Assembly: GCA_035084275.1 (NCBI GenBank)
Contig: CM068747.1
Coordinates: 16,120,001 to 16,184,000 of the forward strand
Direction: 5' to 3'
DNA from: Hydrolagus colliei
Lineage: Eukaryota
Length of the DNA stretch: 64,000 nt
Part shown: positions 1,071 to 60,748 of the stretch, in pieces
Layout of the letters: each line of letters opens with the position of its first letter
Position numbering within the stretch: position 1 is the first letter of the stretch
Program-made: the position numbers and the translations under genes
Notes under the pieces: generated by a model
Seen by the model: only the letters and a program-made list of their open reading frames with translations
The model's database searches: none
Told to the model about the DNA's origin: nothing

Positions 1071-1349
1071 CACATTATTGTTACTGTATTTACATCATAA
1101 AAGATATACAGGATAGTTGGCGGGTTAGAGAAGGTAAACTTAGAAGAATACTTTGAGACTTGCGATAGTGCCACTGATTAAGAAGATCAAGTTTAGCAAA
1201 GGAGATGTAAGAGTCTATCTGAGTTATAACGTTTGCTTGCGCACTAGCAGTTTGTGGTAAATAGGTTAGTTACTGAAGTGAACAGTGTTGCAGGATTCTG
1301 TTGATTCAATTACCTCAATGGAAATCAATCGAGCTTAGTCCCAGGACCC

Positions 1350-1640
1350 CCGGCCCCAGACCCAGACACAGCCACATCCCCGCACCCCCGGCACCAGCTT
1401 CGTGACACACAGCCCTGGCTCCAAGACCAGCCCCACGACCAACGGCTTCGTGAAAAACAGTCCCGGCTTCAAGACCAGCCCCGCGACGCACAGCCCCAGC
1501 TCCAAGACCCACAGCCACGAGATTCACGGCCCTGGTCCCGGCTCCAGCCTCGACGTGGCGACCCATAGCCCGGACACACGCAGCCCCGTCGACCGGACCT
1601 AAAACCCACAACCCCAGCCCCGGTCAGGCTTCAGACCGCA
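1350..1640 (+). repeat. Degenerate tandem units in the L2 5' region (cccggctccaagacc / cacagccc-type)
   Basis: Recurring ggctccaagaccagcccc, ggcttcaagaccagcccc and gctccaagacccacagcc units. Confidence 0.6.
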
Positions 1641-1883
1641 ACGCCTCTGCATCCCCCAGCCGCGGCCTCATATCCCTTGGGATGATGCCGCCCCATTGAC
1701 CCTCGCTCCTGGTCCCCCGCGTGCGCAATATGGCTGCCGCCACGACCCGAGCTTCCCTCCCCCTATTCAAGCTTTTCCCCCCAACCCCCCCTCTCCGTTA
1801 TTTTTTCTCTACCCTTCTTTCTCTTCGCCATCCTCGTTTACTGTCCCTGCTCGACCCTCCCACCGCTTCCCTCTGTTCCAGTA

Positions 1884-2627
1884 TTGGAATCCTCCGTCGG
1901 GCTCACCGTGGCACTCGGCGCTGGCTGTCCAACAGCAGTCACACCAAGTGCCCTGTCCCCCACCATCACCGCCAGCCTCACCGGAAACAAACCCGGGGGG
2001 TCAACCTCTCCTCCCTTATTCAGATCCCCACCCACCCCGCCGACCATCCCAGCCCCCCCCTCACACCCCTCGGCCAACTGCTTTTTCCGCATCGGTCTCC
2101 AAAATGTCCGCTCTGTCTGCAACAAGACCCTGGCCATCAACGATCTCATCCTTGATGAGAACGTTGACATCATGGCCCTGACGGAGACTTGGATCATCCC
2201 AGGCGACACTTTCCCCCTCGTTGAAGCCACACCACCCAACTACACATTCCACCATGCTCCTCGACCCAACCGTCGTGGCGGTGGCGTGGCCCTCATCTCC
2301 AAGACATCCCTCGCCCTATCCCCCTATTCCTCCGGCTCCTTCCCCTCTTTTGAACATCTCACCCTCTCTCACTCCTCCCACAGTTCTTTCAAAATCCTAC
2401 TAGTTTATCGCCCCCCCAAACCCTCCCCCACTTTCATTTCAGACTTTTCTTCACTGTTAGTTTCATTTTGTGCCTCCTCTGATCGCCTTATTATTCTTGG
2501 CGATTTCAACCTCCATTTCACCCCCTCCTGCCCCATTTCCTCTGAATTTTCCTCTTTACTTTCGTCTTTCAACTTCTCCCTTCATATCAACACTGCCACC
2601 CACACGGCCATCCTCTCGATCTGGTGA
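1884..2627 (+). CDS. L2 ORF, APE endonuclease portion (frameshifted segment)
   Basis: Motifs [35 protein letters not shown]. The real start is probably ATG 1730 in another frame, and the frame breaks again at about 2604. Confidence 0.88.
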
Positions 2628-5035
2628 TCACCCGAGGCCTCAACGTCTCTGGCGTCACCATCACAGACAAGGCCATTTCTGACCATTTTTTCATTTCCTG
2701 CAACACCTCTATCCCTCCCCCCTCCACTTCCAAACCCACCACCATCTTCTACCGGCCCTGGAAGAAGATTCCCCCTCAAACTTTCACCTCTGCCCTAGAA
2801 ACCTCCGACCTCCTCCCACAATGGCATTCTTTTTGTACAGACCCATCCTCCGCCTCCACCGCCCTCCACAACACCCTCTCCACTACCCTCGACACCCTGG
2901 CCCCCCTCACCTCCAAAACCCTCTCCCATTCCCGATCATCACCGTGGTACACATCTCACCTCCGCTCCCTCAAAAGCCAAGTGAGAGCAGTTGAACGCAC
3001 CTGGCTCAAATCTGGCCTCACGGTCCACCGGCAAATCTGGCTGGACCGCATCAAAAATTACCGCTCCGCCCTAGCCACCGCCAAATCAGCCTTCTATTCC
3101 AGGATAATCCTGGAAGCGAAGGACAACCACCGCCTCCTCTTCGCCACCACCAACCAGCTCCTCCGCCCCCCCCCCCCCCCCCCCCCCCCCCGCCTCACCT
3201 CGCAGATCCTCTCCTCAAACGATCGTTGTGAGGAGATGCTGGATTTCCTCGAATCTAAAATCGAGAAAATCCGTTCTGCGGTTTCCTCCCCCCACCACTC
3301 CTCCACCTCAGCGCCCTCATCAGCAACCTCAACCCCTACTCACCCCCCATTTCACACTTTTAACCCCACCACCCCGCTTTCAATCACAAAAACAATCACC
3401 TCCATGAAACCCACCACGTGCTCATTGGACCCCATCCCCACCCCCCTCCTCCGCACCCAGCTCCATTTGTTAGCCCCACTCATTTCTGACACCATTAACC
3501 TTTCCCTCTCCTCAGGAACTGTCCCTACCTCCCTTAAAACAGCCACCATCACCCCAATCCTGAAGAAACCCTCCCTTGATGCGTCGCAACCATCAAGTTA
3601 TAGACCCATCTCCAACCTCCCGTTTCTATCCAAGGTCCTTGAAAGAGTGGTTGCCTCCCAGCTCCGCTCTTTCCTTTCAACTCATTCACTTTTTGAACCC
3701 CTCCAATCAGGTTTTCGCCCTATCCACAGCACAGAAACTGCCCTGGTCAAGGTCACAAATGACATCCTAACCGCCTGTGACCAGGGCTCCCTCTGCCTCC
3801 TCGTCCTCCTTGACCTGTCTGCTGCGTTCGACACAGTCGATCACACCATCCTCCTTCAACGTCTTTCCTCCCACCTCAACCTTCAAGGCACAGTCCTTGA
3901 CTGGTTCCACTCTTATTTGACCCATCGTTTACATTTTGTTTCTTCCAATGGCTTTTCATCAAACCCCCGCACAGTTTCCCATGGCGTCCCTCAAGGCTCT
4001 GTCCTTGGTCCCCTTCTTTTCACCCTTTACACGCTCCCTCTGGGCGACGTCATCCGCAAACATGGGGTAAATTTCCACATGTATGCGGATGACACCCAGT
4101 TGCACCTTTCTGCCTCATCCCTCAACCCCCAGACGATCGATGTTCTGACAGCATGTCTGTCCGACATCGAATCGTGGACGAGGGACAACTTTTTGCAATT
4201 GAACGTGAGTAAGACCGAGGCCCTCCTGATTGGCTCAAGCCAGCGCCTCCGCACATCGGGCGCTGCCAGCCTCAACATCCAAGGCTGCACTCTCCACCTC
4301 ACAAAGCCAATCAGGAACCTCGGCATCATGTTCGATCAAAAACTTTTCTTCCTCCCCCACATCCGCGCCTTGACCGGCACAGCCTATTTCCATCTGCGCA
4401 ACATTGCCAGGCTCCGCAACTATCTCACCCCCCGCGCTGCCGAAACACTCGTGCACGCGTACATCACCTCACGGCTGGACTACGGAAACTCTCTCCTAGT
4501 CGGCCTCCCCAGTTCCTCCATTCATAGGCTGCAGGCCATCCAAAACTCTGCAGCCCGTGTACTATCCCGCACCCGCCTCCGTGATCACATAACCCCCACC
4601 CTCGCCCGTCTCCACTGGCTCCCCATCCTCCAGAGGATCGAATTTAAGATCCTCGTCCTCACCTACAAGGCCTTACACGGCCTTGCCCCATCCTACCTAA
4701 CCGATCTACTCTCCCCCTACACGCCCACCCGGACCCTCCGTTCAACAGGACTTGGCCTGCTCCAAGCCCCCCGCCCGAACCGCCCCACCATCGGAGGCCG
4801 GGCCTTCAGTTTCTCCGCTCCCACCCTATGGAATGCCATCCCTCAATCCCTCCGTTTCGCCTCTTCCCTTTCCTCTTTCAAGGCCGATTTGAAGACTTTC
4901 CTCTTCGATCGTGCCTTTTGTTTCACCCCGAACTCTTTTACCTCCCCTTCGTGTTTCACCCCTTCCCAAACACTCCCCTCCCAGCTGGGGTCACACGCCT
5001 CTTGTTTAGCGCCTTGGGACGTCCTCCCGACGTGA
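2624..5035 (+). CDS. L2 ORF, end of APE plus reverse transcriptase and C-terminal domain
   Basis: 803-codon ORF with [65 protein letters not shown] and LHWLP, all typical of L2. Confidence 0.95.
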
Positions 5036-5446: not shown

Positions 5447-6061
5447 GTGTCAACCAGTTCCAAAGGAAGACATTATTGACAGTATACCAAACATAAGCCA
5501 TAGAATTGTTTATTTTGCTTTCTGACTTTCTAATTAACTTCTATGCAGCCTAATAACTTTAATGAAACAAATGGGGAATAAAAGACTGTTGCAAGCTAAA
5601 ATGGCTCAGCAAATGAACCAGTGAGCCATTATTTGGCACCATAGATCAGTATGCCTCATTACTATAAAATTAGATATGTATCCAGATATCAGAGCAGTAT
5701 ATTACATACTGATAGTTTGCACAGTGTTCCTCATTAGTTGTAGTAAAACAAAAATTATTAGTGAAAGCTATCTTTCAATCTTAGAATTTTTTTGCACCTT
5801 GTGTGAACAAACCTCATATTTTTTATCTAATTTATTTGAAAAGAAGATTAGAATCTTATTTCCAGAATGGTAAATAAGTAATTAGATATTGCAATGTTTA
5901 GAACTCCTGCTTATTTTTCTAGATAACATTTCATAAATTGTATTAATTATGTAAAAGCACTTTAATTTTTCAGACAAGAAGGTAATGTAATAAACGTTTA
6001 TTCATATAGGCAAATTTTGGTTTGTTTGCAAAACATTTCAAACAAACAAAGCATATCTTTG

Positions 6062-7700
6062 AAACAAAAACAGAAATCATTGGGAACACTCATGCAGCAT
6101 CTATGAAGAAAGGAAAAGTGAGTCAATGTTTTGGGTTCACGACCCTTCATCAGAACTGGGACATGTTGGGAGTGAGAGGCTTGTAAGGATTATGGGGTAA
6201 ATAGCAGGAGATTATAGGTTAAAGAGATGTTAATGTTGTGAAACAAAAGGGGGAGTTGGAACAAAACTGGAGAGAAGAGGTGTTAATAACGTTAAAATAA
6301 AATGGGGTACAATTGCCAAAGAACAGGCAGATCAGATGGTTCCAAAAAGAGGAGAAAAGTGAGCTGTTATGGTCTGAAATTATGAAAATCAATATTAAGG
6401 CCAGAGGCCTGTAACGTCCATAGCAGATGGATAAGGTGCTGCTCCTCGAGCTTGTGCTGCAGTTCATTGGAACAGAGTAGGAGACCTTGAATGGAGAGAT
6501 CAGAGTGAAAGTGGGAAGGAGAGTTGAAATGGCAAGAAACCAGTAGGTTAGGGTTCTATTAAAACAACAACAACTTCGATTTATATAGTGCCCTCCACGC
6601 CAGACGGCGTCTCAGAGCTCTATTAGTGGACAGAACGGTGCTGTTCAGCAAATCGGTTACCCAATCTACGTTTGACCTCCTCAATGTCGAGGAGACCACA
6701 TCGTGAGCAGCGGATGCAATATGCTAGTTAGTGATAGTACGTGTAAATCGCTGTCTCACATAAAAACTGGCTTGGGGCCTTGGATAGTGGTCTGGGAAGA
6801 GGTGAAAGGGCAGGTATTGCACCTCATGCATTGGCATGGGAAGGTGCCGGGGGAAGGGTAGCGACTGTTGGTATTGATGGAGGAATGAACCAGGGAGTCA
6901 CGAGGGAACGGTCTCTTTGGAATGCTGAGAGGGGAGGGGAGGGAAATAGATGCAGCCCCAACACAGTCATCAATGTACCTGAGGAACAGGTCAAGGAGCG
7001 GATCTGAATAGGCCTGAAACAAAGAGTGTTCCAGGTGGCCAACAAACAGGCAGGCATAGCTGGGACACATGCGGGTTCCCGTAGCAATACTTTTTATTTG
7101 GAGGAAGTGGTTGAAGTTGAAGGTGAAGTTGTGCAATGTCAGAGCAAGTTCAGCCAGGCAGAGGAGGGTAGTGGTGGATGGAGATTGGCTGTGCCGCTGT
7201 TCCAGGTGGGGAAATGGAGGTGTATAGAGACTGAACGTCCATTGTGAATAGGTAGTGTTCAGAACCACGGAACCGAAAATTGTTGAAGTGGCGGAGGGCG
7301 TCAAAAGAGTCACGGATATAGGTGGGTAAGGTATGGACAAGAGGAGCAAGAATGGAGTCCAGATATGGAGATCAGTTCAGTGGGTGGGAACTGGTTGAGA
7401 TAATAGGTCTCCGAGGACATTCCTGTTTGTTGATCTTGGGGAGGCGGTACGGGCAAGCAGTGCAGGGCTGGTGGACTATGAGGTTGGAGGCTGTGGGAGG
7501 AAGCTCGCCAGAGGAGATGAGGTTTTTGACTGTGCGGGTGATGATGGCTTGGTGTTGAAATGTGGGGTCATGGTTCAGGGGAAGGTAGGAGGAGTTGTCG
7601 GAGAATTGGCATTCAACCTTTGCCAGGTAGAGGCCCTTATGCCAAAATACGTCAGTGCCACCCTTGTCGGCAGGTTTGATAACGATGTTGGGATTGGTCC
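6062..7700 (-). mobile_element. Decayed Penelope-like element (RT + GIY-YIG + pLTR)
   Basis: Minus strand: HNFTFN..FLQ..IATGTRMCPSYACLFVG..LRYIDD (PLE RT); YCIRCSRCGLLDIEEVKRRLGNRFAE (GIY-YIG); KLEEQHLI..LQASGLNIDF; terminal repeat at 6062-6160 with a hammerhead-like CTGATGAAGGGTCGTGAACCCAAAACATTGAC. Confidence 0.9.
6562..6621 (-). mobile_element. Minimal L2-type 3' tail insertion (second tail family) inside the Penelope element
   Basis: Reverse complement of AGAGCTCTGAGACGCCGTCTGGCGTGGAGGGCACTATATAAATCGAAG(TTG)n, flanked by direct repeat TCTATTA. Confidence 0.8.
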
Positions 7701-8130
7701 CGAGGGAGTTATAATGAACACAACATCAAACACAAGAAGGGAAACTGATAGTAGAGAAGGCGAGTAGGGTAAAAGTGCAGATTGAAAGTCACTTCAAAGA
7801 GAAGAGCAGAACTTCAAGGTAGGCATTGCTAGAAGAGAAGTGGCAGTGAATTAAACATAAACAAAAACATAAGATACTGCAGATGCTGGAATTCTCTTTC
7901 TTTGGGTCAGCCAAAATGTTAAGATTGATATTTGAAAATTTATAAATTAGAATTAGTGCTGCTGTTTCATTGAATTTTGATGGCCAGCTATTGAATTTGA
8001 CAGATTATTTCTGAATAATATATTTTCTAAATATTATTCGCTGAAGTCAATATATGTAGCTTTGTTCACCAGGGAGATTGCCGTGCCAGGCTGTTCCTTT
8101 GATGAACAATTCAGTTGAAAGTTATTGTAG

Positions 8131-32780: not shown

Positions 32781-33564
32781 TTTGAACTCCAGCTCAGCCA
32801 AAACTGTGTGTAACAGCTTGGAGTTTTATAGAGTCTATAATTTAAGGTAATGTCTCAAAACACTTTGCAGAGATGGCGCAGAAATCCAGTGTTGTTGGTG
32901 GTCAGGGAGGTGGGGAGGTGACTGGAGGAGAGATCCGGGACATCCCCTTTTGGATGTCCTCCCGACGTGAAAGGCGCTCTATAAATGTAATTTTGTTGTT
33001 GTTGTTGAAGAGGGGATATACCCATAGTAGGCACAAGAGAAAGATTTGCAAGAGACTTTTAAACAGAGCAAGAGACATAGACACACACACACATACACAC
33101 ATACAGAAAGAGAAAGGAAGATAGAGAGAGGGAGAGAAGAGGTGGGGCGGGTGGGGTGCAGGGGTGCTTTTTCACAGCACGTGTTGTGCACTGTACATGG
33201 AACCATAGAAATTTATGACACTGAAATTTACAGTGATTTAGCCCATTACGTCTGCTAGTGCATCCAGTGCAATCCTTTCACTCCTTTCAATACCTCTGAA
33301 AATTCTCCACATATTCCTGAGGCTGATTCTTGCATCATGTTAGTCATAAATATTTTACATAACCGTCATCAAACCATGTACAGCAGGGGATAAATAAGAT
33401 GCTCTTCTTTCCAAGGGGAGGTAAGGAACCCAACTCTGTAACTTTGGGTTGGCTTCCACCAGTTCCTATCTCTCAAAACACAAAATACTGCAGATGCTGG
33501 AAATCGGAAACAAAAACAGAAATTCCTGGGAAAACTTAGCAAGTCGGGCAGCATGCATGGAGAA

Positions 33565-33612
33565 AGGAAAGTAAGTCAACGTTTCGGGTCCACGACCCTC
33601 CGTCGGAACTGG
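33565..33612 (-). ncRNA. Minimal hammerhead motif, antisense copy with mutated core
   Basis: Reverse complement CCGACGG-A-GGGTC-GTG-GACCC-GAAACGTT: perfect stem II and palindromic ACGT, but the CUGANGA box is altered. Confidence 0.5.
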
Positions 33613-33659
33613 AAGGGTTCTGATGAATGGTCGTGGACCCGAAATGTTGATCACTTTCC
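33611..33659 (+). ncRNA. Minimal type I hammerhead ribozyme motif (Penelope-associated)
   Basis: CTGATGA(33620-26)-A-TGGTC-GTG-GACCC-GAAA-TGTT; flanks GGAAGGGTT and GATCACTTTCC could form stem I. Confidence 0.65.
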
Positions 33660-34479
33660 GTTCTCCATGGATGCTGCCTGACCAGCTGAGTTTTCCCAGC
33701 AACTTCTGTTTTTGTTTCCTATCTCTCTCAGTTTGGAAATGACAGAAGGAGCCAAATGACACAAGCAACCCTGTGTGATAGTCAACTGAGACTCAGTCTA
33801 ATATCCTTCTGGTTTGGAGTTAAGATCTCAACTATTTTTATTCCCATGTTGCAAGGTTTCATGTTCTAATTGAATTGTCCTCATCTATTTAGCTTGCTAT
33901 TGCTTTGAATCTTATCAGATTGTCTTTTTTTTAAGAATTAAAAATGTTGCAGTCACTAGATCCTAACATTTATGCTACAGAAGCAATAGGGTAGATATTC
34001 AAAGAAAACCTGTAGGGGGCTCTCATGTACAGTTTATATACTGCTCTATACATAAAAAATTACACTTCCCAGTTGCAGTGCAATAAATGCAAACCTTACT
34101 AAGCATTGTATTGTACAAAAAATTAAATACAACAAATTGGATCAGGAACATATTTACTTGTAAGACTTAAAAATCTAAACGGAAGCGACTTACAGATTGG
34201 AAAACAAATATTGTGGTTCTGTTTTAGAATCCCTAAATTGGCAAAGCTGAATAGATGTTACCAATGACATTTTAAGAACTGAATTACAAAATTTAAAGGA
34301 TATGACAGCAGGAAGAGGAAATGTCCATTCAACTATTTTATACAAGTTTTCTGGAGTAATATATTATGGTAATTTTCTCTTTGAAATTTGGTAATCGACA
34401 GACCATTAATCATATATCAACACTGAAACCACTGGTGCTTTGCCTAAATTAGGAATTAATATAGTGTGTTATGAATTGC

Positions 34480-42894: not shown

Positions 42895-42976
42895 ATGTCT
42901 GAGTTTATTTTAGCTTTGGTAACAATATCAGGATTATTGCCCATCATCAAGGCTGTCTCAGTTCTAGTCGATGAAG
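42895..42976 (+). CDS. LRP1B: LDL receptor-related protein 1B, first coding exon (signal peptide)
   Basis: GCAATG start; MSEFILALVTISGLLPIIKAVSVLVDE plus 1 nt, then donor G|GTAAG. Matches the human LRP1B N-terminus [27 protein letters not shown] in sequence; the 82-nt phase-1 length agrees with my recollection of human exon 1. Confidence 0.9.
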
Positions 42977-53565: not shown

Positions 53566-56110
53566 AACTACAACAATTTATTTACATTTATGGAGCACCT
53601 TGGGATGTCAGGAGGACGTCCCAAGTCCTCCTGACTTGGGACGTCAGGCAACTGAAGGCAACGATCAAACAGGAGGGTCTTGAGACCATCCACGAAGGAG
53701 GCAAGGGAAAAGTGAGGCGGCAGGTCTGTGGGATGGAGTTCCAGAGTGTGGGGCAGAGAGGCTGAAAGCTCAGCCACCGATGGTAGGGCAGGTCAGGCGG
53801 GAGATATGGAGCAGACTGGAGCCAGCTGAAAGGAAAGTACGGGCAGGTTCGTAGGGAGTCAGCAGGTCAATCAATCAATCAATCAAAATTATATTAATAG
53901 AGAGCCTTTCATGTCGGGAGGTCGGAGAGATAGGAAAGGGCAAGGCCGTGAATGGCCTTGAAAGTGAGGATGAGGATGTTGAATTTGATCCTCTGTGGGA
54001 TGAGGAGCCAATGGAGCCGAGCGAGGGTGGGAGTGATGTGGTTGCAGAGCTCAGTGTGGGAGAGGACATGAGCTGCAGAGTTCTGGATGATCTGCAGCTT
54101 GTGAAAGGAAGAGCTGGGAAGGCCGACAAGGAGGGAGTTTCCATAGTCAAGCCTTGATGTGATGAATGCTTGGGTGAGGGTTTCAGCAGCCTGAGGGGTG
54201 AGGCAGTGGCAGAGTCTGGCAATGTTACGCAGGTGGCAGATGTCATGGCGCGGATGTGTGGGAGGAAGTATGAGAGCGACAAGTTTGGGGTCAAACAAGA
54301 CACCCAGGTTGCTGACTGGCTTTGTGAGATAGAGTGTGCAGCCATGGATGCTGATGCTGCTAGCGCCTGCGGTGCAGAGGCGCTGACATGAGCCAATCAG
54401 CAGTGCCTCAGTCTTATTGACATTCAGCTGAAGAAAGTTGTCCCTCGTGCAGGACTTGATGTTAGACAGGCAGGCAGTCAGGATGCCGGTTGTCCTAGAG
54501 TTGAGGGTGGAACCGGAGGTAACAATTGGGTGTCATCCAACAACAACAACTTCGATTTATATAACGCCCTCAACACCGGATGGCGTCACAGAGTGCTTCA
54601 CAACAACAGTTCCCAGAACCGTGTATATGTGGACATTTACCCTATATCTGCGGATAGTGTCACTGAGGGGAAGCATGAAGAAGAGGGGACCAAGGACAGA
54701 GCCCTGAGACCCGCCACACGAGACGTTGCGGGGGCTGGAGGAAAAGCTGTTGGTAGAGTCACAAAGTGGAGACAAATGGTCAGTATATCATTTATGACTT
54801 TGGCCAGAGCGGTTTTCATGCTGAGTGCAGCACAAAAGCTCAATTGGAGGGGCTCATGGAGGGAGTGGGATGAGAGAAAAGAGAAAAGCTGGAAGGCAAT
54901 GACTCTTTCAAGGACTTTCGACAGAAAAGGGAGGTTGGAGAGGGCCAGTAGCTTGAAAGCTGTGATGCATCAAGAGAAGGTTTCTTCAGAAACCTTCAGG
55001 TGATAGTAGCGTTTTGAGGGGGTGGGAATGGTGCCGGATGAGAGGGACATGTTGATAGTGACAGCTAGTATTGGGGCAACAATGTGAAGCTGGGAGGCAA
55101 GGAGAGGGGTGAGGATGGGGTCCAAGCAGCAGGTGGTGGGCTTCATGGCAGATATGGTGGTGATGACAGAGGAAGGGGGACAGGTTTGAAGATGTGGAAG
55201 GAGGGATGGGTAGGAGTCGGAGTATGGGAAGGAGGTGGGGAGGGGTTGGAAGTTGCAAGGGTGGTGATAGCTCGAGGAAACCCAGCATCTCCTCACAGTG
55301 GGAGTTAGAGGAAATAATCTGTGATGCATGGTGGGGAGGGCAGAGGAGCCGGTTTGTGGTGGAGAAGAGCAGTCGAGGATTGCCCTTTACCTCCAGGATT
55401 ATCCTGGAGTAGAAGGATGATTTGGCGGAGGCCGGAGCACAGCGATAAGTTTTGATGCCATCCAACCAGATATGCCAGTGGACTGGATTTGAGCCAAGTG
55501 CATTTAGCGGCCCTCACCTGGCCCTTGAGCAAGCCGAGGTGGCTGATGAACCAAGGTGAAGTTCGACAGTAGGAGGTGGTGAGGGAGGCATGTTGAGTGC
55601 AGTGGAAAGGGTGTTGTGAAGGAGATTAAGTGCAGAGGATGGGTTGGTACGGGAGGTGGTCCAGAAGGGGAGGAGTTTAAAGGACTACAAGGCAGCGGAG
55701 AGGTATTGTGGGGAGATCTTCTTCCAAGGATGGTAGAAGATGGTGGTAAGTGTGGAGGTAATGGGGAGAGGGATAGAAGAGTTGAAGGAGATGAATTGGT
55801 GATCGATGATGGCCTTGTTGGTGATGGTGAAATCCGAGACACTGAGGCCCAGGGTGATCACCAGGTCAAACAGGTGGCCATTCATGTGGATGGCAGAATG
55901 GATGTGGAGGGAAAGGTTGAGAGAAGAGAGGAGAGAGAAGTCCGAAGAGTTGGAGCAAGAGTAGGTGAAATGGAGGTTGAAGACGTTGAGGATGATGAGG
56001 CAATCGAACAGAGGAGAGTGGAGATATTGGAGATGAAGGTGGGGGAGGATTTTGGGGGTGGTAAATATGGAGAATCGAGAGTAAGAGATGGTGGCAGAGG
56101 ATGAGGTGTT
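53566..56110 (-). mobile_element. Older decayed L2 copy (APE end + RT + tail) with nested tail insertions
   Basis: Minus-strand peptides [68 protein letters not shown]; colinear with the L2 at 1330-5070. Confidence 0.93.
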
Positions 56111-59659: not shown

Positions 59660-60748
59660 ATCTCGACCTCTCCACCGCCTTCGACACTGTCGACCATTCC
59701 ATCCTCCTACACCACCTCTCCTCCTTCCTCAATCTCTGCGGACCTACCCTTGCCTGGTTCGACTCCTACCTCTCTCATTGCCTACACTTTGTCGCCTCCA
59801 ACGCTTTCTATTCCGGCACCTGGGCTCTGTCCTTGGCCCCCTAATTTTCAACATCTACATGCTCCCACTTGGTGACATCATCTGCAGACATGGGGTTAAC
59901 TTCCACATGTATGCGGATGACACCCAAATCTATCTCTCTGGCTCTACCTTCGACTCCAGGACTACCACTGTCCTGACAGACTGTCTGTCAGACATCGAGT
60001 CCTGGATGAGAGCAAACTTTCCACAGTTGAATGTCAACAAGACCAAGGTTCTATTGATTGGCTCGCACCAGCGACTTCTTGCATCAGGCGCTGGCTGCAT
60101 CAACCTCCATGGTTGCTCACTCAACCTCACCAAGCCAATCAGGAACCTAGGTGTCTTGTTTGACCCTCAACTGTCATTCCTCCCCCACATCCAAGCAATG
60201 ACTCGCTCTGCCTTTCCCCACCTCCGCAACATTTTCCGACTCCGCCATTACCTCACCCCCAAAGCCGTTAAAACCCTCCTCCATGCCTTCATTACATCTC
60301 GGCTTGATTATACAAATGGTTGCTGGTCGGACATCCCAATTCCTCCTTCCACAGGCTGCAGATAATTTAGAACTCTGTGGCCTGTGTCCTCTACCATTCC
60401 AAACTCTGTGATCCCATCTCCCCCATCCTTGCCCGACTTCATTGGCTCCAGCAGGCTCTGGCCTGCTCCACGTCCCCCGACCCACCCGCCCAACCTTTGG
60501 CGGGTGAGCATTCAGCCACTCTGCCCGCAACCTCTGGAATTCCATCCTGAAGTCCCTCCATCTCGATCCCTCCCTAGCCTCCTTCAAGCCTTGCCTCAAG
60601 ACTCTCCTCTTTGATGGACCCATCGGCAACTCCTCCCCCCCACCCTTTCCTCAGCTCGGATCTGAATCAATAACTGTCCAGCGCCTTGGGATGTCCTTCT
60701 GACGTGAAAGGGCCTTTACAAATGTAATTTTGTGTTGTTGTTGTTGTT
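59660..60748 (+). mobile_element. L2 RT and 3' fragment
   Basis: [39 protein letters not shown]; tail CAGCGCCTTGGGATGTCCTTCTGACGTGAAAGG..(TTG)n. Confidence 0.92.

Follow-up and report, generated by a model that had tools for sequence, protein, structure and literature searches.

Head-to-head Penelope-like ends with minimal hammerhead motifs in a 241-bp insert of Hydrolagus colliei and in genome-wide hairpins of the same family

INTRODUCTION

Insertions of endonuclease-positive (EN+) Penelope-like elements (PLEs) are described in passages of PMC8557442 as carrying an inverted, 5′-truncated copy and a one-sided tail of 30–40 bp, and the origin of the inverted pLTRs is called undefined there. 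In the rotifer element Pen2a_Av, an inverted pLTR and a tail occur together with target-site duplications (TSDs) of 8–10 bp, and either fold-back self-priming or an antisense template was proposed as the source of the inverted pLTR (passages of PMC3846280). For a Penelope-type protein, cutting and extension of the two target strands was found, RT starting at two sites that delimit the tail and ribozyme cleavage being dispensable (PMC11167929). PLEs also bear minimal hammerhead ribozymes (min-HHRs), and passages of PMC4209133 mention dual ones that lie on opposite strands ∼100–700 bp apart and are tied to truncated PLEs. A further protein-free kind, the non-LTR retrozymes, is pLTR-derived, has type I hammerheads and depends on PLE enzymes, and its members are head-to-tail tandems with at least two consecutive hammerheads on the same strand (passages of bioRxiv 10.64898/2026.07.22.740005).

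Here we describe an insert in a 64,000-nucleotide stretch of the H. colliei genome (the window; contig CM068747.1, positions 16,120,001 to 16,184,000 of the forward strand), which an earlier note had read as a mobile, protein-free ribozyme retroelement. Very probably, the insert consists of two head-to-head pLTR ends of a Penelope-like retroelement with RT and GIY-YIG domains; one insertion event likely placed it there, and it has likely been dead from then on. A literature search on Penelope, cartilaginous and hammerhead ribozyme returned no match, and Repbase, Dfam and subscription papers, which lay outside that search, may already name the family.

RESULTS

Structure of the insert

The insert occupies 33475–33715 (241 bp) between two 12-bp TSDs, TTCCTATCTCTC, at 33463–33474 and 33716–33727 that are 100% identical, confirming the size and the perfect direct repeat given in the earlier note. 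One sequencing run spans both insertion junctions, and no empty insertion site was seen among the joints listed from the sequencing runs, 50 further joints being outside that list. In runs presumed to be of RNA, contig coverage was confined to repeat parts. The left, tailed arm (33475–33612, minus strand) is a 5′-truncated Penelope-like 3′ end that stops at the 5′ edge of a hammerhead motif, as judged from the same sequence lying 3′ of frames for RT and GIY-YIG at two other loci (L073 and L074). Since the hammerhead strand is the coding strand, this arm represents the element 3′ end on the minus strand. It opens with a ∼34-nt Penelope tail (33475–33508, minus strand), the sense 3′ end of the element, which has no counterpart in the right arm and makes the insert asymmetric. 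A junction filler (33613–33616), unique in the genome, leads into the inverted second arm without a tail (33617–33718, plus strand), the last 3 nt of which are common to the right TSD, i.e. the first 3 nt of that TSD match the element too.

The inverted arms include stretches of 73 nt (86%) and 34 nt (85%), the gap being 7 nt, and are 82% identical across 217 aligned columns. That both are copies of a pLTR also found elsewhere in the window was borne out as well: the insert matches at 77% the tail-less pLTR (6061–6159) that forms the 3′ end of a longer decayed family copy (6061–7894, minus strand), which has the tail at its 5′ end (7864–7894) and contains RT-like remnants. The long hairpin that had been expected upon transcription is supported by the predicted fold of the plus strand, at −154.7 kcal/mol versus −65.2 kcal/mol for shuffles (z = −18.6, with 0 of 200 shuffles as good).

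The parent element

Pfam searches on the window's own decayed frames gave nothing (0 of 4 proteins), and better-preserved copies replaced them for identifying the domains of the parent. Among 20 loci related to the window copy at 6061–7894, L073 and L074 carry the pLTR 3′ of RT (PF00078, E 4e-6) and GIY-YIG (PF01541, E 0.002 and 0.005) frames on the same strand, with the scores of both domains below the Pfam cut-offs. The earlier view of a Penelope-type pLTR with a minimal hammerhead that was inserted with a TSD is right. Translations of L245, L073 and L074 have a CX2-5CxxC linker between RT and EN and two cysteines inside GIY-YIG, which by the linker definition of PMC8557442 would place the parent with Neptune/Nematis. 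No intact parent ORF was found in 150 scored RT matches, the longest open frames of close RT relatives being 513–603 aa.

A pLTR 3′ of RT and GIY-YIG, an adjacent inverted pLTR, a one-sided tail and a TSD of variable length were thus all found, and the layout is the one published for endonuclease-positive PLEs in passages of PMC8557442, PMC3846280 and PMC8969392. Like the window insert, the complex insertions in passages of PMC8557442 and PMC3846280 have an inverted 5′-truncated pLTR head to head with a direct pLTR, a one-sided tail and a variable TSD. In contrast to them, both halves here are reduced to the pLTR alone, so that no ORF is left; the TSDs of the present family are mostly 12–15 bp rather than the 8–10 bp given for the rotifer in passages of PMC3846280; and a hot spot of stops, described below, is found here, whereas none is given in the passages of PMC8557442 and PMC3846280 on such insertions.

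The family is abundant. Its 29-nt tail motif has 1,236 exact matches in the genome (control 0), and when 400 kb, taken as 40 stretches of 10 kb each, was searched with a profile, 12 elements were found, four of which had an inverted partner. At this rough rate, a Gb would hold about 30,000 elements (∼30 copies per Mb) and 10,000 inverted pairs. At L220, L224 and L229, the sequence returns to the pLTR start after the tail and ∼130 nt of element body, giving head-to-tail units of ∼270 bp that are nearer to the non-LTR retrozymes than the hairpin is. In the pLTR and the first 40 nt past the tail, several sense-strand pyrimidine tracts that end in AG resemble splice acceptors, and a subfamily has a change in one of these tracts. 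Separately, six RT matches of near-equal scores and 37% identity to the family RT (C3:78777, C38:53629, C238:13940, C24:80646, C18:21350689 and C520:88958 of G000) have stop-free frames of 625–783 aa, five of them lying ≤90 kb from a contig start, and possibly represent a separate, young, subtelomeric Penelope-like family.

Hammerhead motifs

Hammerhead core boxes are present on both strands where the earlier note had placed them. The minus-strand motif (33574–33611) has CCGACGG at 33600–33606 and GAAACGTT at 33578–33585, with changes at U4 (33605) and A9 (33600), and its predicted cut site lies between 33578 and 33577 on numbering taken from the min-HHR model (PMC4209133). The plus-strand motif (33617–33652) has CTGATGA at 33620 and GAAATGTT at 33641, with a CpG transition in the palindromic loop (33645) and G10.1 changed to U (33628); this last change had been missed before. 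With U4 and A9 changed on the minus strand and G10.1 on the plus strand, the window copy has no intact foldable core. An Rfam scan of the window, the kind of hammerhead search that the earlier note had proposed, gave no family, and hence no hammerhead, at E ≤ 1. Since minimal motifs lack helix III, this result is not evidence against the motif, and the hammerhead call rests on the core boxes and the min-HHR description in PMC4209133.

Across the family, the commonest core is CUGACGA (74 of 100 arms) with a stem II of 5 bp, and the motif has the CUGANGA and GAAA boxes, the G10.1–C11.1 pair in stem II and the palindromic 15.2–16.2 of a minimal type I hammerhead. With the metazoan PLE min-HHRs in passages of PMC4209133, it has in common the type I core, the extra base between 9 and 10.1 and the palindromic 15.2–16.2. 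Compared with the min-HHR pairs described there, the two cores of the insert lie only ∼14 bp apart on opposite strands, and both are damaged. Owing to the opposite strands, a transcript of either strand has one sense motif and cannot form a dimer by itself. The predicted pairing probability of stem II is 0 on both strands within the hairpin, and 0.96–0.98 for the left and 0 for the right arm when folded singly; the hairpin is predicted to sequester the sense hammerhead copy.

The near-intact motif has 1,629 exact matches in the genome (control 0), and among the first 100 listed there was one head-to-head pair, 49 bp apart. All core bases are kept in 32 of the 88 arms covering the motif; both cores are kept in 5 of 29 hairpins, and both cores plus the palindrome in none of the 29. 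Differences from the family majority amount to 5.1% at core non-CpG positions and 4.4% at non-core ones. By these counts, the hammerheads appear to be passengers that decay at about the rate of the remaining arm, and nothing in the sequences suggests selection on the motif after insertion. A head-to-head pair at G000:C1:6139821-6139901 has both motifs and palindromes intact and would be a better natural test case than the window copy.

Hairpins across the genome

Other copies, whose absence was to count against the reading of the earlier note, do exist, as many hairpins in the genome have TSDs of their own. When the whole insert was used as the query, 40 of 2,310 candidates were scored and all matched near full length; the whole-length matches, at 28 distinct loci, mostly had their own TSD, and no identical centres occurred. 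Such uniform lengths and independent TSDs favour a palindrome that acts as a non-autonomous ribozyme retroelement, transcribed and then reinserted whole by the Penelope RT and endonuclease, and the short outer ends of the inverted arms could correspondingly be 5′ truncations of a hairpin RNA.

The uniform length, however, arises from the query together with the stop hot spot. In a position-order sample made of the first 90 of the 1,236 tail-motif matches, 43 hairpins, 6 distant inversions, 40 copies without an inverted arm and 1 double-tailed copy were counted. From the rows used in the analysis, L024 and L029 (repeats of L005 and L002), L137 (identical with L136), L141 (identical with L016) and the double-tailed L145 were left out, and the comparison of arms also omitted L122, L155 and L193, whose arms are longer than the reference. 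The 43 hairpins spanned 98–416 bp (median 182), only five falling within 225–260 bp, and both cores were covered in only four; their junctions contained filler in 28, overlapped in 12 and were blunt in 3. A uniform ∼240-bp family, as seen with the whole insert, was rejected as a query effect on the basis of this spread. A query of the tail and outer arm only revealed adjacent hairpins at 15 of 30 loci.

The 18-nt junction of the window copy, at ≤1 mismatch, had three matches in the genome, itself and two outside any pLTR (control 2), and so is without a sibling. One junction did recur (L154 and L191), with 18 matches in the genome, a point in favour of unit copying. These 18 copies nevertheless form no clade: nine carry the tail on the short arm, six on the long arm and one on both, with two unclear; the subfamily letters are mixed, and the between-copy distance of 0.11–0.13 is like that of unrelated hairpins. 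The join itself sits on a microhomology and is favoured by it. Whole-hairpin copying was not supported on this, the one recurrent junction tested.

The arms themselves were compared in 77 hairpins. Within one copy their distance was 0.091 versus 0.117 when shuffled (0 of 2000), and subfamily variants common to both arms of a copy numbered 82 versus 25 expected. No fixed left-versus-right difference was found, and the between-copy distances were 0.110 (left-left), 0.115 (left-right) and 0.117 (right-right); the left arms being no nearer to left than to right arms, no master with distinct arms is seen, and no single internal structure inherited from a master was found. The varied junctions, the missing left/right differences and the variants common to both arms together indicate that the hairpins were likely made anew at each insertion. 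The claim of a mobile non-autonomous element did not survive the differing junctions, the unique window junction, the spread of lengths and the lack of fixed arm differences; for the window copy it is largely refuted, and we regard it as highly improbable. The insert resembles the non-LTR retrozymes in its pLTR origin, its type I hammerheads, its freedom from proteins and its dependence on PLE enzymes, but it is head-to-head with hammerheads on opposite strands, rather than a head-to-tail tandem, and bears no sign of unit copying.

Arm ends and target sites

TSDs were found in 45 of 70 hairpins, where they measure 9–17 bp, and in 8 of 39 single-arm copies, compared with 5 of 325 mismatched flanks as the control, and 42 of the 53 found were 12–15 bp long. 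At L012, L019, L025, L028, L129 and L188, a near-identical target sequence lies inside another repeat, hinting at a preferred target.

The inner ends of the arms were concentrated at a hot spot. Of the 47 tailed arms at risk, 22 stopped within reference 130–139, against 49 of 739 for the remaining 10-nt bins (p 1e-12), and 19 of 24 inverted arms stopped there as well; among the upstream pLTRs that continue into the element body, 6 of 29 start at 134–139. Within stem I, the hot spot falls on the 5′ strand, immediately upstream of the core, and both arms of the window copy run to this boundary. At the predicted cleavage site (reference 101–105), there was no excess of ends, with 3 falling there among 89 for the tailed arms and 1 among 43 for the inverted ones. 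A splice junction, considered for the CAG just upstream of the hot spot, was rejected as no common sequence occurs past the boundary. From the position of these ends, the hot spot is likely the 5′ end of the element RNA, and RT stalling is a possible other cause.

At the outer side, the inverted arm ended at reference 25–39 in 23 of the 43 hairpins. Microhomology to the TSD at the tail-less end averaged 1.5 nt versus 0.61 nt when shuffled (maximum 1.0 in 2000; n = 42), and at the tail end, where the reference is poorly defined, 0.90 versus 0.79. The inner ends of the two arms of a hairpin were uncorrelated (rho 0.11, p 0.47, 43 hairpins), and in 25 of 43 the tail-less arm reached beyond the tailed arm in the 5′ direction.

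These ends also bear on a different course of a single insertion from the same parent, in which a single cDNA folds back and primes itself to yield the second arm, or an antisense template supplies that arm, and the tip is then lost asymmetrically. It would produce the same head-to-head layout and account for the variants common to both arms, double-tailed copies exist (L145 and L259), and self-priming is on record as a proposal in passages of PMC3846280. However, in the 25 of 43 hairpins just mentioned the tail-less arm holds sequence that is missing from the tailed arm, both arms pile at one inner boundary, and the outer end clusters at the tail boundary, matching the second RT start site in PMC11167929; a fold-back origin is therefore unlikely.

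Genomic neighbourhood

At 42895–42976 (plus strand), 9.2 kb from the insert, is an ATG exon whose leader is hydrophobic and which has a GT donor; this agrees with the distance of ∼9 kb given in the earlier note. Of 150 scored LDLa matches, 15 lie on the same strand 120–580 kb beyond the exon (C14:16.28–16.75 Mb), and the exon would fit as the first exon of an LRP gene of very large size. This gene is presumably LRP1B, the name that the earlier note had put forward. The very stable predicted hairpin at 9.2 kb upstream of the ATG exon could invite the idea that the window copy was recruited to serve this neighbour, either as a regulatory hairpin or as a source of small RNA. Between its arms, though, 13 of 95 non-CpG sites differ, a proportion exceeding the family median (0.092), which means that pairing is not being kept, and with the ∼30 family copies per Mb such a distance is unremarkable, so that co-option is exceedingly improbable.

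Elsewhere in the window, twelve degenerate tRNA-like matches (9260, 11762, 13733, 17687, 19484, 29645, 31520, 32038, 39270, 45562, 48846 and 49466) are probably heads of a tRNA-derived SINE. Long frames at ∼1300–5030, 53900–56100 and 59660–60360, including an 829-aa open frame at 2546–5032, look to us like LINE endonuclease and RT remnants.

DISCUSSION

In the explanation that we consider very probable, the insert would have formed as follows. The endonuclease of the element would nick both target strands, 12–15 bp apart, and each free 3′ end would prime one cDNA on element RNA, one cDNA starting at the tail end and the other ∼34 nt further in. Synthesis of each cDNA would then proceed toward the RNA 5′ end, which appears to be a small number of bases upstream of the hammerhead core, and end-joining via filler or microhomology would connect the two. 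When both cDNAs reach the RNA 5′ end, a product of ∼240 bp with one hammerhead per strand would result, as in the window. We infer the two-ended priming and the RNA 5′ end from DNA fossils only.

Several observations count against this explanation. Of 70 hairpins, 25 yielded no TSD; in 17 of 43, the inverted arm has its outer end at reference ≥45, off the expected second start site; and one junction type is present in 18 copies. Moreover, a central asymmetric deletion in a fold-back palindrome could also uncorrelate the inner ends, microhomology suits end-joining equally well as priming, and gene conversion could account for part of the similarity between the two arms of a copy.

In L1 twin priming, the opposite target strand supplies a second primer, and the outcome is a 5′ inversion that has microhomology to the TSD. 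Its two parts derive from neighbouring segments of a single RNA; in contrast, both arms of the insert repeat the same segment. A literature search for Penelope twin priming returned no title on the subject, and the reading proposed here was not found stated in the passages of the papers cited. Poseidon of Anolis carolinensis (PAc; PMC11167929) resembles the present family in having a tail bounded by two positions and a hammerhead ∼100 nt upstream of the end, and the lack of an end excess at the cleavage site here is in line with an uncleaved RNA template. While PAc was tested in vitro (PMC11167929), the present family is known from sequence alone, and its parent has the Neptune/Nematis CX2-5CxxC linker that Penelope/Poseidon lack.

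The insert is a real feature of a known kind and likely a dead copy. The locus itself is of little weight, being one of roughly ten thousand similar hairpins and with its ribozymes broken, and annotators should be cautious, as whole-length queries make such hairpins resemble MITEs or mobile ribozyme families. As a class, these stubs record, in a form that can be counted, an insertion reaction that is poorly understood, and they predict both the start position of the element RNA and priming by both target strands. Whether they are the fossil record of a reaction in which cDNAs, primed by both nicked strands at the start sites on either side of the tail, each run off at the RNA 5′ end is, in our judgement, an evenly balanced question. 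If so, the inverted pLTRs of the class, the origin of which is called undefined in passages of PMC8557442, would be explained, the ribozyme would mark the point at which the transposon RNA begins, and the uncleaved RNA would be the template in vivo.
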